Part shown: piece by piece, positions 48,232 to 50,628 of the stretch
How the letters are laid out: the number at the start of each line of letters is the position of its first letter
How positions within the stretch are numbered: the stretch's first letter is position 1
Source of the DNA: an uncultured Lachnospiraceae bacterium
GTDB lineage: Bacteria > Bacillota > Clostridia > Lachnospirales > Lachnospiraceae
Length of the DNA: 64,000 bases
Direction of reading: 5' to 3'
NCBI GenBank assembly: GCA_948909305.1
Contig: CAQWRG010000005.1
Location: 4,716-68,715 of the forward strand
The notes under the pieces: model-generated
Databases searched by the model: none
What the model was told of the DNA's origin: nothing
Seen by the model: the letters and a program-made list of their open reading frames with translations, nothing else
Program-made: the position numbers and the translations under genes

Positions 48232-48747
48232 ATGGCAGCCGCTTATCAGGAAATTGTAAAACAAGTATTAAACCAATTTGGGAAAGTATCGAACACAGAG
48301 GAGCGCGACAAAGAAGGATTTATCAAATATAGTTTATCTTATGGCAACCCCTGCCATTCCCTAAAGATGAATGTATCCGTAAGTGAGAAAAGTAAAATTA
48401 TCCGGATTGTCACATGTCTTGCAGAAGGGATTCCAGAGAACCGTCATAGGGAAATTTATAAATTGATAAACGATTTGCAGAATGAATGGCTGTACATGCG
48501 CATTTATATGACAAACGAGAATGATTTGGTGGCAGAATACCAGATGATGCTGTACCAGCCGAAAGGAAGGGAAAGCGTAAATGGTTTTATAGAAAATTTG
48601 CAGTCTGTGTTCCGTTTTGCAACAAATATTACCATGAATTATGCAGAATGTGTACAGAACATTCTAAAACAAGGAGCGGTCGGATCAAAAACCAGTCTAA
48701 AACTGAGCCAAATTCGTTTAAATCCGTTCTGGGAGGCGCCGTTATGA
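48232..48747 (+). CDS. Hypothetical protein, possibly a YbjN-like (T3SS-chaperone-fold) protein
   Basis: Size and predicted secondary structure only, so the domain call is weak. Its stop overlaps the next start (ATGA). Confidence 0.35.
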   Translation: MAAAYQEIVKQVLNQFGKVSNTEERDKEGFIKYSLSYGNPCHSLKMNVSVSEKSKIIRIVTCLAEGIPENRHREIYKLINDLQNEWLYMRIYMTNENDLVAEYQMMLYQPKGRESVNGFIENLQSVFRFATNITMNYAECVQNILKQGAVGSKTSLKLSQIRLNPFWEAPL

Positions 48748-50060
48748 GAAAAGATACTGTTGTTTTAGGGAAAAATGCAGTATTTAGCGCAGACTGCAGG
48801 GAAACGAAGATTAATAACAATGTCCTTGTTTGTGGAAGCAGTGGCTCAGGAAAGACGATGTCTATTTCAGAGCCAAGGCTGCTGCATACTTATCATTCCA
48901 GTCTGATTATGACTTTGTCCAAACGCAGGCTGATTGCAAAATACATAAAACTTTTTCAGACAAGGGGCTATAAAGTCCTAGATCTGAACTTTGTTTCTCC
49001 AGAAAAATCGGAAATTTCCTATGATCCGCTTCAATATCTTAAGAGCTGGACAGACGTTACTTATCTTGCGGAAGCAATCGTTATGGCAGACAGCAGGAAA
49101 AAAAATTCAAGTTCAGACCCATATTGGGATCATGCGAGCATAAGCCTGTTGTCAGCGCTGATCGCCCATGTGCTGATGACAAAAGAACACGGAACTATGG
49201 CAGATGTAATATCCCTGTTTAAAGATTTACGCATTATAAAAGGCAGTGATCTGATAGAAACTTCACTTGATGAAGATTTTGAGGTGATCCGGCAGGCTGA
49301 TCCGCATTGTTTTGCTATTTGCTGTTGGGATTCTTTCCATCAGATGCCTGTCCGCACTTCCAGTTGTATTTATTCTACGCTTTCCGTAGCTTTAAACACG
49401 ATTTTTACCCCACAACTCTGTGGAATGATGCAAAAAGCGGAAAAGGTGGATTTTAAAAAAATATCCGATGAAAAAACCCTTTTATTTGTCACAACTTCTC
49501 CGGTGAACCCATCGCTAAACAGTTTTGTAAATATTTTTTACAGCCAGATGTTTAAAGAATTATTTGAAATCGGAGAAAAAAATGAATCTGGCCAGTTAAA
49601 CCGCCCAGTGCATGTGCTGTGCGACGATTTTGCCTGTGGATCAAAAATCGCGAATTTTGCTGAATACATTTCAATATTCAGGGAAAAAGGGATCTCCGTC
49701 ACCTTGCTTCTCCAAAGCGAAAGCCAGTTGGATTCCATATATGGGGAAAAAGATGCAAAGACTATCATCAACAATTCCGACACTTATATTTATATGGGCG
49801 GAGTTGACATACAAACGGCAAAATCCATCAGCCAGCGGTTAAACCAGCCGCTAGAAGACGTGCTTTCCATGCCAATCGGGCAGGAGTATATTTTTCGGCG
49901 CGGGCAAAAGCCGATTGTGACACAGCGCTATGAAACATTAAAGGACAGAGAGTATCAAAAACTTTTACAGATGGATCAGGAATCAAAAATGCAAAAGCAA
50001 ATAAACCAATATATAAAAGCAGGGGGTTATAGATATGGATATGCAGAAGAAAAGCAGTAA
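48744..50060 (+). CDS. TraG/VirD4/TrwB-family P-loop ATPase (type IV coupling-protein-like), soluble with no TM domain
   Basis: Walker A VLVCGSSGSGKTMS. Walker B and helicase-like block HVLCDDFACGSKIANFAEYISIFREKGISVTLLLQSESQLDSIYG, which matches the TraG/VirD4 hallmark. Start was re-chosen at 48744 (GGGAGG RBS). Confidence 0.65.
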   Translation: MRKDTVVLGKNAVFSADCRETKINNNVLVCGSSGSGKTMSISEPRLLHTYHSSLIMTLSKRRLIAKYIKLFQTRGYKVLDLNFVSPEKSEISYDPLQYLKSWTDVTYLAEAIVMADSRKKNSSSDPYWDHASISLLSALIAHVLMTKEHGTMADVISLFKDLRIIKGSDLIETSLDEDFEVIRQADPHCFAICCWDSFHQMPVRTSSCIYSTLSVALNTIFTPQLCGMMQKAEKVDFKKISDEKTLLFVTTSPVNPSLNSFVNIFYSQMFKELFEIGEKNESGQLNRPVHVLCDDFACGSKIANFAEYISIFREKGISVTLLLQSESQLDSIYGEKDAKTIINNSDTYIYMGGVDIQTAKSISQRLNQPLEDVLSMPIGQEYIFRRGQKPIVTQRYETLKDREYQKLLQMDQESKMQKQINQYIKAGGYRYGYAEEKQ

Positions 50061-50628
50061 CGGCATTTCGCTGGTTCCTTTAGAAACTTGTTTGTTTGGA
50101 GAGCGGACTATTTTTTTAGAAGGGGAAATTGACGATGCGGCGGCAATGGAGTTTATCAAAAAATTAATGGTTTTAACTGTGGAAGACAAATATCTTCCAA
50201 TCCGGATTATGATAAACACGCGGGGAGGGGAAATAAACAGTGGACTGCTCATTTACGATGCAGTTGCCACTTGCCAGACTCCGCTAAAAATGTATTGTCT
50301 GGGAAAAGCGTACAGTATGGGCGCAGTTATTTTTGCCGCCGCCCCAAAAGGAAACCGCTATATGCTTGCAAACAGTGAATTGATGGCGCACGAACCGCTT
50401 TTAGGGAATCCGGTGCAAGGAAGCAGTTCCACGATTTGCTCAGTTTCGGAAATGATTTTAGAGACAAAGAGACGGCTGATACAAATTCTATCGAAACATA
50501 CGGGAAGGACAGAAGAAGAAATTGAACTGGCAACCGGATATGATCATTTTTTTAGGGCAAAAGAAGCGGTCGTATTTGGGTTTGCAGACCATATCATTGA
50601 GTTTTCAGCATTAATTTCGGGAGAATAA
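50035..50628 (+). CDS. ClpP-family serine peptidase (S14) paralog with an intact catalytic triad
   Basis: Ser in GKAYSMGAVIF, His in LMAHEP and Asp in GYDHFFRA align to the ClpP Ser97/His122/Asp171 positions. Overlaps the upstream ATPase by about 26 nt. Confidence 0.75.
   Translation: MDMQKKSSNGISLVPLETCLFGERTIFLEGEIDDAAAMEFIKKLMVLTVEDKYLPIRIMINTRGGEINSGLLIYDAVATCQTPLKMYCLGKAYSMGAVIFAAAPKGNRYMLANSELMAHEPLLGNPVQGSSSTICSVSEMILETKRRLIQILSKHTGRTEEEIELATGYDHFFRAKEAVVFGFADHIIEFSALISGE

Follow-up and report, generated by a model that had tools for sequence, protein, structure and literature searches.

A soluble VirD4-like ATPase coupled to a ClpP paralog and a YbjN-type chaperone in conflict islands of gut Clostridia

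The chaperone, ATPase and ClpP genes

Positions 48232-61467 of a 64-kb stretch of DNA from an uncultured Lachnospiraceae bacterium (contig CAQWRG010000005.1 of GenBank assembly GCA_948909305.1; the whole stretch of 64,000 nucleotides (nt) that was analysed is referred to below as the window) carry an array of eight genes on the + strand, with successive gaps of -4, -26, +1, 0, -23, +11 and +14 nt. Its first three genes encode (i) a TY-Chap1 protein of 171 amino acids (aa), similar to YbjN and to chaperones of type III secretion systems (T3SS) (48232..48747, + strand; Pfam TY-Chap1, E 3e-07, and YbjN, E 3e-04), (ii) a soluble P-loop ATPase of 438 aa with the VirD4/TrwB fold, derived from the coupling proteins (T4CPs) of type IV secretion systems (T4SSs) (48744..50060, + strand), and (iii) a ClpP paralog of 197 aa (50035..50628, + strand; Pfam CLP_protease, E 4.9e-47). 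The stop codon of the chaperone gene and the start codon of the ATPase gene overlap in the sequence ATGA, while the ATPase and ClpP-like open reading frames (ORFs) share 26 nt. A preliminary description of this region, made by inspection of the sequence, had recognised a soluble TraG/VirD4-family ATPase of about 440 aa without an N-terminal transmembrane (TM) segment, its Walker A motif, the overlap of its 3' end with a ClpP-like gene encoding an intact triad, the ATGA-coupled YbjN-like gene upstream, and the lack of relaxase, VirB4 and pilus genes nearby, and in all of these respects our results agree with it. It overlooked that the downstream genes for sigma-like, anti-sigma and CHAT proteins belong to the same tightly packed array, that the entire region is a conflict-system island, and that TM-less VirD4-like proteins constitute a large family, of which the window ATPase is by no means a one-off representative.

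The ATPase contains the Walker A motif GSSGSGKT (residues 31-38), the block DDFA (294-297) and the motif GISVTLLLQSESQL (316-329), and it matches the Pfam families T4SS-DNA_transf (E 2.7e-36), TraG-D_C (4.4e-19) and TrwB_AAD_bind (3.4e-12). It has no hydrophobic N-terminal segment (maximal KD19 value of 1.15, versus 1.8-2.1 in conjugative homologues of the CD1115 family), and a TM-like N-terminus was found in none of 348 members of the soluble clade to which it belongs. An AF2 model of the protein, built on 36 relatives (pLDDT 89.4, pTM 0.87) and including the all-alpha domain, superposes over its full length on Cag-beta (VirD4) of H. pylori (Foldseek E 1e-16) and on TrwB (TM 0.66-0.72); HerA rings of anti-phage complexes, VirB4 and DotL appear lower in the Foldseek list.

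Among curated families, NCBIfam NF045973 ("VirD4-like conjugal transfer protein, CD1115 family") is the nearest by sequence, and the window ATPase scores 234.6 bits against it at a cutoff of 250. Since distant ClpP-linked ATPases of another locus (L005; L numbers denote the loci compared in this study) pass this cutoff with 337.6 and 281.6 bits, it fails to separate the soluble from the conjugative kind. Identity to CD1115-family proteins encoded by conjugative plasmids of Firmicutes is only about 27%. In comparison with the conjugative CD1115 T4CPs, the window ATPase and its relatives lack an N-terminus of ~110 aa with two TM segments, an insert of ~30 aa and the C-terminal tail. Moreover, their Walker B motif contains DD (49623-49628 in the window; residues 294-295), whereas conjugative relatives and TrwB have DE at this site. 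The block DDFA, considered in the preliminary description to be a hallmark of TraG/VirD4 proteins, is thus a trait of the soluble clade: DD is present in 331 of the 335 clade sequences with a locatable motif, and DE in none. The Walker A lysine is invariant across the ATPase alignment.

The soluble clade descends from the conjugative coupling proteins of Firmicutes, i.e. from the CD1115 family. As many as 1242 and 1409 clusters (90% identity) were recovered around two of its members; 633 representatives (50% identity) score below 1e-30, and the best 150 of them are nearly all 400-450 aa in length. C-terminal TPR-like or Mrr-like nuclease domains occur on some members of the clade, and unknown soluble N-terminal domains on others.

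The ClpP paralog retains the catalytic triad (Ser94/His119/Asp170) and is 35-40% identical to solved cellular ClpPs (E ~1e-31 for the match to ClpP1 in the Protein Data Bank, PDB). It scores below the cutoffs of all curated ClpP models (PRK12553, 157.9 versus 228 bits; PRK00277, 150.2 versus 249 bits; TIGR00493, 130.7 versus 308.6 bits). The model for phage head-maturation proteases (NF045542; cutoff 120) gives 69.1 bits, and the cellular ClpP models score higher. Residue analysis was performed with 54 distinct paralogs taken from related loci. The Ser/His/Asp triad and the oxyanion residues (G68, M98) are invariant in 53 of them. In canonical ClpP, residues Y60, Y62 and F82 are central to the binding of IGF loops and acyldepsipeptides (ADEP). 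Across the family of paralogs these positions of the docking pocket are replaced (Y60 by D/T, with R in the window; Y62 by L, with M in the window; F82 by S/G/A, with T in the window), and the axial-loop residues E8, R12, E14, R15, D18 and Y20 are swapped for a different, family-specific conserved motif. Six of the 11 pocket positions, among them L23, I90, F112, L114 and L189, stay hydrophobic, and therefore the surface has been remodelled rather than lost.

The protein encoded upstream matches TY-Chap1 above the gathering score (30.6 bits, cutoff 27) and is a predicted peptide-binding adaptor. Its gene is coupled to that of the ATPase both in the window and in L098, and in the closest relatives of the ATPase (P0002-P0006, 636-652 aa) TY-Chap1 is fused to the N-terminus of the enzyme. 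A second, acidic family of ~227 aa (f2) is encoded ahead of ClpP in 26 loci, and a match to YbjN (PF10722; best E 9.9e-07) was obtained for six of nine members. Only this per-member Pfam scan tied f2 to YbjN, as a search of the PDB with the f2 profile gave no match. No homology signal between the TY-Chap1 family and f2, or between either of them and PcfB, was obtained with hmmsearch, phmmer or hhalign. In one subclade, the position of f2 before the pair is occupied by an XRE-type regulator of ~90 aa.

Conservation of the ATPase-ClpP pair

The loci sampled comprised 80 metagenomic loci (46-70% ATPase identity), two loci from genomes (34-35%), one from a viral collection (32%) and several further contigs surrounding more distant or closer relatives. 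The scan for metagenomic loci was carried out with alignment A3, the broad alignments A1 and A2 being too diverse, while a single-protein scan of genome contigs yielded only two distant loci, L004 and L005. When the count was restricted to the 68 loci of the soluble clade flanked by 700 bp or more on each side, a ClpP paralog was directly adjacent to the ATPase gene in 64 (upstream in 55 and downstream in nine). The exceptions are L005, where ClpP lies 3.1 kb away beside a second ATPase copy, and three loci without ClpP. Adjacency persists at ATPase identities as low as 32-37% (L004, L088, L092-L094).

The 52 distinct pairs fall into 30 clusters when grouped at 90% identity, into 10 at 70% and into two at 50%, and the catalytic motifs of both proteins are retained in at least 30 lineages (90% identity). 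In the window as well as in other loci, the two genes overlap or lie only a few nt apart. The distance matrices of ATPase and ClpP are strongly correlated (Mantel r 0.94, a value reached in none of 2000 permutations). Gene order flips and accessory genes vary between loci. The clade is found very widely among Clostridia of the gut, and one of its members, P0051, has entries in 1031 collection blocks.

Neighbouring genes and genomic settings

The gene starting 1 nt past the ClpP stop codon (50630..51643, + strand) encodes a 337-aa protein similar to sigma factors of the extracytoplasmic function (ECF) type; it has a sigma-like fold, in which only the ECF region 2, forming an N-terminal domain, is recognised. 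Proteins of this kind are rare, with only 14 clusters among 5.8 billion proteins. It is followed by a gene for a protein of 193 aa (51644..52225, + strand) containing, at residues 31-38, the motif H-x3-C-x2-C, which is conserved in the orthologues of L095 and L101. This motif is a signature of zinc-binding anti-sigma domains, and the protein is on this basis a putative anti-sigma factor of the ZAS type; its match to zf-HC2 is weak (E 0.085, residues 10-38). The next gene (52203..54875, + strand; start codon at 52203 or 52215) encodes a protein of ~886-890 aa composed of helical repeats, in which only weak TPR matches were found, and a CHAT caspase-like protease domain (residues 557-885; Pfam CHAT, E 2.9e-38). 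It is conserved 3' of the sigma-like/anti-sigma pair in L095 and L101.

The order chaperone-ATPase-ClpP-sigma-like-anti-sigma-CHAT is kept in a second species (L095), where the six proteins are, in the same order, 34%, 76%, 67%, 55%, 39% and 44% identical to those of the window; as the lowest values of this series belong to the chaperone (34%) and the anti-sigma-like protein (39%), these two are the fastest evolving. The trio of the sigma-like protein (337-347 aa), the ZAS protein (~200 aa) and the CHAT protein (~890 aa) also stands alone, in L101 (10001-14433) and L102, while in L098 the cassette is accompanied by other downstream genes. The modules occur separately, and therefore the window operon is a combination of modules. 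The gene for a major-vault-protein-like protein of 797 aa (54887..57280, + strand; Pfam MVP_shoulder, E 4.9e-21, and Vault_3, E 8e-04) is conserved with neither of them and does not follow CHAT in L095. Its product has a weak Vault_3 repeat and a long C-terminal coiled coil.

Scans for promoters and terminators revealed no convincing terminator within the array, neither class of site being clearly more frequent than in shuffled sequence, and an Rfam scan of positions 40000-64000 gave zero matches. The 244-nt intergenic region 5' of the operon contains a 22-bp tandem repeat, AAAAAGACAGCGAAAGAAAAGC (48029..48148, without strand assignment; 5.4 copies, TRF score 173). Four copies are found at three or fewer mismatches, versus 0.01 expected, and the repeat is confined to this site in the window. 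It may be a regulatory, operator or iteron-like site.

No relaxase, VirB4, pilus, T4SS, integrase, capsid, portal or terminase genes are present in the 64-kb window or in the 10 kb past each of its ends, the latter regions being taken from metagenomic contigs sharing the end genes. The genes located past the ends encode MatE, TetR, MMPL and ProRS on one side, and GH101, an amidase, a methyltransferase and MMPL on the other. In control loci L086 and L087, the conjugative CD1115 T4CPs are proteins of 602 aa with TM segments, encoded beside PcfB, VirB6-like, VirB4-like and PrgI proteins, with no ClpP. Only two weak relatives of the clade were found among 2.9 million viral contigs, and no match to the ClpP paralog in phage records exceeds 37.5% identity or is closer than cellular ClpPs. 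Other settings of the pair include a position between DegV and PadR (L004), among genes for MetK, MurA and response regulators, and by genes for pyruvate kinase and glycosyltransferases. The variety of these settings therefore identifies the pair as a small, mobile and self-contained cassette. The ATPase genes of L090 and L091, described below, sit with their partner gene immediately downstream of spoVAA-spoVAB-spoVAC.

In the window, a GTPase-centric conflict system of the GAP1-N2 type (24077-36495) lies upstream of the cassette, and the same island precedes the cassette in L095. It encodes a protein of 292 aa, an Hsp70 protein (582 aa), an Hsp70-vWA fusion (698 aa), a protein of 1005 aa without a Pfam match, a DO-GTPase2-like protein (412 aa), a GAP1-N2/GAP1-M protein (759 aa) and a transglutaminase (347 aa), and fits the Hsp70 theme of the GTPase-centric systems described by Kaur et al. 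2020 (PMC7159879). At the border between housekeeping genes (FeoB, HAD, LytTR two-component) and the island there is a gene for a small serine recombinase (22696-23313; Resolvase, E 3.5e-27), which may mark a mobile or invertible island.

Genes for C-type lectin, YARHG, Ser/Thr kinase, radical SAM and Sel1 proteins follow the GAP1-N2 island. Among these, the Ser/Thr protein kinase (297 aa) and the radical SAM protein (371 aa) occupy positions 41137-43327, and the match of the latter to the PADLOC model of prokaryotic viperins (2.1e-14) is partial, covering only the radical SAM core. Genes for secreted or surface proteins surround the cassette (36520-39975, 44775-45821, 45796-47988 and 57295-61467), with C-type lectin, YARHG, BspA-type leucine-rich repeat (LRR), Big_2 and Listeria-Bacteroides repeat domains. 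The LRR and Big_2 ORFs of the window may represent a split gene, since some strains carry a single gene of 716-730 aa (L002).

In L005 (535-16317) the cassette resides inside a type III-B CRISPR-Cas locus (Cas6, Cmr2/Cas10, Cmr3, RAMPs). The cas genes are followed by those for a 511-aa protein and an XRE regulator, for two soluble VirD4-like ATPases of 422 and 694 aa, for the ClpP paralog and for a Card1-like nuclease. In this setting the cassette may serve as an ancillary module of the CRISPR system; no CRISPR array was seen in the 21 kb of L005, and the C-terminal 294 aa of the 694-aa ATPase have no relative in the PDB. In about ten loci (e.g. L045, L049, L050, L055, L032, L012 and L009), three genes are found downstream of the ClpP-ATPase pair. 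They encode an acidic protein of 89 aa, an Endonuclea_NS_2 (DRGH) nuclease of ~240 aa whose tail is acidic and of low complexity, and a second ATPase of the T4CP-like kind (~468 aa). A membrane protein with a bPH domain is often encoded upstream in these loci. The very abundant version of the cassette from the human gut (L003, 1-21263) is set in an island that encodes a protein of 2952 aa, an HD protein and a transglutaminase, together with an E1(ThiF)-JAB fusion, several proteins of ~100-120 aa and a second T4CP-like ATPase, which hints at a ubiquitin-like conjugation system beside the protease. Further loci bring genes for Macro-HTH, vWA, TerD-vWA and rhodanese proteins. No model of PADLOC-DB 2.0 covers the pair: the ATPase matches only mad8 (E 6.2e-08), and the ClpP paralog, chaperone, sigma-like and anti-sigma proteins match none, while the CHAT protease gives a weak match to BovA (5.6e-07).

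A probable dedicated protease unit and its possible mechanism

The data show the gene content and its coupling, the conservation and co-divergence, the folds, the catalytic residues and the changes of the pocket, and we hold it very probable that the chaperone, the TM-less ATPase and ClpP form one dedicated unit, which is neither conjugative nor phage-derived. Of the more specific readings, the one we prefer, albeit tentatively and with somewhat less than even confidence, is that they constitute a dedicated, horizontally mobile proteolysis cassette of the conflict islands of gut Clostridia, in which the ATPase docks on ClpP. With greater reserve still, it is possible that a non-AAA+ ATPase of the FtsK/HerA type, derived from T4CPs and exapted from the coupling protein of a Clostridial integrative and conjugative element (ICE), acts as the dedicated partner of a specialised ClpP, with substrates delivered by the T3SS/YbjN-type chaperone. 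Such a machine might destroy relaxases or other invader proteins, or trigger sigma-factor or toxin responses, and would be the first ClpP machine with a non-AAA+ ring.

Models for the proposed mechanism are provided by adaptor-AAA+-ClpP systems and by the complexes of chaperones or adaptors with T4CPs in secretion. The chaperone would bind a specific client protein and pass it to the ring-forming ATPase, much as adaptor- and chaperone-bound substrates are handled at VirD4/DotL in secretion systems. The ATPase would then engage its own ClpP paralog, whose pocket and axial loops are altered from the type that binds ClpX/ClpA, and the client would be degraded or processed. Acting in this way, the cassette would serve as the regulated-proteolysis arm of conflict and defence islands. 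By analogy with RseA/SspB/ClpXP or Craspase-Csx30-RpoE, a cascade may be envisaged for the window operon, in which the CHAT protease cleaves the anti-sigma factor and ATPase-ClpP removes the resulting fragment. As regards the non-AAA+ unfoldase/protease pair suggested in the preliminary description, this reading is strengthened, albeit short of proof, by adjacency, co-divergence, the remodelled docking surface and the chaperone fusions; the change of Glu to Asp in Walker B speaks against it, and docking is something that we infer.

Several observations weigh against this interpretation. Because the gut species that supplied many of the loci are related, shared ancestry inflates both the adjacency counts and the Mantel correlation, despite which the association clearly spans the clade. 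In L090 (8001-11396) and L091 the gene after that of the soluble ATPase encodes a 700-aa AAA/AAA_lid_6 protein in place of ClpP, and L071 is also devoid of ClpP. No natural ATPase-ClpP fusion was found among the long representatives, and neither an IGF-like loop nor a conserved C-terminal docking motif was seen when the ATPase alignments were inspected by eye. With Asp clade-wide at the site of the catalytic Glu of Walker B, the enzyme may work as a slow switch and not as a processive motor. T4CPs are known above all for their DNA-dependent ATPase activity, and the threading of polypeptides through them is itself unsettled. The numbering of the ClpP pocket rests on E. coli and B. subtilis reference sequences that were entered by hand, and alignment to solved ClpP1 sequences agrees with it. 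Finally, the sigma-like/anti-sigma/CHAT trio occurs alone in L101 and the cassette occurs without the trio, and therefore the proposed cascade may reflect mere juxtaposition.

Among the alternatives, we place a suicide or anti-mobile-element protease before a functional link without docking, the latter before a housekeeping or developmental role, and a decayed mobile element last. The T4CP-like ATPase could sense invading DNA or a mobile-element protein and then open or activate ClpP for indiscriminate proteolysis (abortive infection) or, in a variant of this scheme, capture and destroy relaxases and T4SS substrates as a form of anti-conjugation immunity. HerA-type rings of the SIR2-HerA and DUF4297-HerA systems, the recognition of relaxases by T4CPs and the deregulation of ClpP by ADEP offer analogies, and the nearest structural neighbours of the ATPase after the T4CPs do include the HerA rings of anti-phage complexes. 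The DD Walker B suits a switch more than a motor, and the ATPase stems from the family that provides the coupling protein to ICEs frequently found in these bacteria. The Mrr-like nuclease or TPR domains of some clade members, the locus placed within type III-B CRISPR-Cas beside a Card1-like nuclease, and the XRE-type regulators preceding the pair in one subclade are in line with such a role. We nevertheless regard it as unlikely: there is no PADLOC model for ClpP and only the weak mad8 match (E 6e-08) for the ATPase, many loci lie among housekeeping genes with no other defence genes, and the recurrent peptide-binding chaperone points to a specific protein client rather than to DNA sensing. Slightly less probable, in our opinion, is a functional link without docking, in which the ClpP paralog works alone, mixed with housekeeping ClpP or with ClpX/ClpC, and the ATPase and chaperone do no more than select, remodel or sequester the substrate. 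In other bacteria, mixed rings of ClpP1 and ClpP2 and the binding of partners by one paralog only are established, and the retention of hydrophobic residues at six of the 11 pocket positions, the failure to find a docking motif in the ATPase and the replacement of ClpP by an AAA protein in L090 would all be compatible with this view. It accounts poorly for the family-wide replacement of Y60, Y62, F82 and the axial-loop residues, for the lack of a conserved AAA+ unfoldase gene near the pair, and for the very tight translational coupling, a feature typically seen where the products are subunits of the same complex.

That the cassette is a protease with a housekeeping or developmental role in spore-forming Clostridia, involved for example in sporulation or germination and placed in the conflict island by coincidence, appears improbable. 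A developmental role has a precedent in TepA, a ClpP-like protein of Bacillus, the wide spread of the clade among gut Clostridia (P0051 with its 1031 collection blocks) fits such a role, the clade is often found among MetK, MurA and pyruvate kinase genes, and one variant adjoins a spoVA operon; yet this spoVA-adjacent locus is the one without ClpP. Moreover, the genomic position is not conserved between lineages, gene order flips, accessory genes vary, the chaperone evolves fast, and the neighbours are repeatedly toxins, CRISPR, E1-JAB, CHAT, vWA and Macro domains. It was also considered, in the preliminary description, that the locus might be a remnant of a mobile element or prophage, i.e. 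a fragment of an ICE, conjugative plasmid or phage in which a coupling protein or packaging ATPase stands beside a prohead protease. The nearest annotated relatives are indeed conjugative coupling proteins, ClpP-fold prohead proteases exist, and a resolvase gene is located 25 kb upstream. This explanation is the least probable and was rejected, as it is contradicted by the data on context, viral contigs and conservation: the full T4SS or prophage structural module that might have been expected just outside the window is absent from the 10 kb past either end, and relaxase, integrase, capsid, portal and terminase genes are missing from these flanks as well as from the window; real CD1115 T4CPs differ in length, TM segments and neighbours, no TM-like N-terminus occurs among the 348 clade members, the two viral matches are weak, and the ClpP paralog is nearer to cellular than to phage models. 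Furthermore, both genes of the coupled pair are intact and conserved across many lineages in varied chromosomal contexts.

Our preferred reading, a proteolysis cassette of conflict islands with a docked ATPase, may be compared with several known systems. The ATPase resembles the T4CPs (VirD4/TraG/TrwB, CD1115) in its P-loop and all-alpha fold over the full length and in its Pfam families, and its gene has a small coupled partner upstream, as the conjugative T4CP genes have in the gene for PcfB, to which they are translationally coupled. It differs from them in the absence of the TM anchor, insert and tail, in having DD for DE, and in its ClpP neighbour in place of a T4SS and relaxase; the partner upstream resembles YbjN, and no relationship to PcfB could be detected for it. 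With ClpXP, ClpAP and ClpCP and their adaptors SspB and MecA the cassette shares a protease of the ClpP fold with an intact triad, a ring-type ATPase and a small adaptor-like protein, and a hexamer placed on a heptamer would create the same mismatch as in ClpXP. In contrast to these systems, the ATPase belongs to the FtsK/HerA-type superfamily and not to AAA+, the pocket and axial loops of ClpP differ, and the paralog scores below all ClpP equivalog cutoffs. The combination of a ring ATPase of the FtsK/HerA superfamily with an enzymatic effector, the island context and the variable accessory genes recall SIR2-HerA, DUF4297-HerA and other defence pairs of an ATPase with a protease; here the effector is ClpP instead of SIR2 or a nuclease, and the ATPase is of the T4CP type with an all-alpha domain.

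The window operon also bears a likeness to Craspase (type III-E gRAMP with TPR-CHAT; Csx30/Csx31/RpoE) and to RseA-SspB-ClpXP, in that CHAT, a sigma-like protein and a partner with an anti-sigma motif lie by a Clp-type protease with an adaptor-like protein. Unlike Craspase, it contains no Cas7-11/gRAMP, its sigma-like protein has 337 aa with only region 2 recognised, and the trio is also found without ATPase-ClpP. TY-Chap1 was defined in the ARG-centred ADP-ribose conflict systems (PMC9503650), with which the cassette shares a chaperone of the TY-Chap1/YbjN type as a conflict-system accessory and, in some loci, flanking Macro, vWA and rhodanese genes; there is no ARG gene here, and the text on ARG-centred systems is silent on a VirD4-like ATPase and ClpP. 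The neighbouring GTPase systems have been described without mention of ClpP, VirD4, TraG or vault (Kaur et al. 2020, PMC7159879). More generally, no description of a VirD4/TraG/FtsK/HerA ATPase paired with ClpP was found in the full-text literature searched, whose coverage does not extend to subscription journals, and the pairing is likewise undescribed in the searched full texts that combine these ATPases with CHAT, vault, YbjN or CRISPR.

The cassette can be regarded as a two-component, adaptor-assisted protease of the Clp type with a different class of ATPase; that this ATPase is a non-AAA+ motor of ClpP is a stronger claim, to which we give a minor share of our confidence. To our knowledge, every described ATPase partner of ClpP is an AAA+ Hsp100 protein docking via IGF-type loops. 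If the stronger claim is true, compartmental proteolysis would be extended to another ATPase superfamily, and the cassette would offer a soluble, tractable model for the handling of chaperone-bound substrates by a VirD4-like ring, an unsolved problem of type IV secretion. Should docking be disproved, a widespread and previously undescribed association of three genes would remain, which is useful for annotation, since the proteins of the soluble clade are named conjugal transfer proteins in NCBI records. The cassette may also point to ClpP paralogs whose response to compounds targeting ClpP would depart from the usual one. It is abundant in Clostridia of the human and mouse gut and resides in conflict islands, and may therefore represent an unrecognised immunity or regulatory module of these bacteria.

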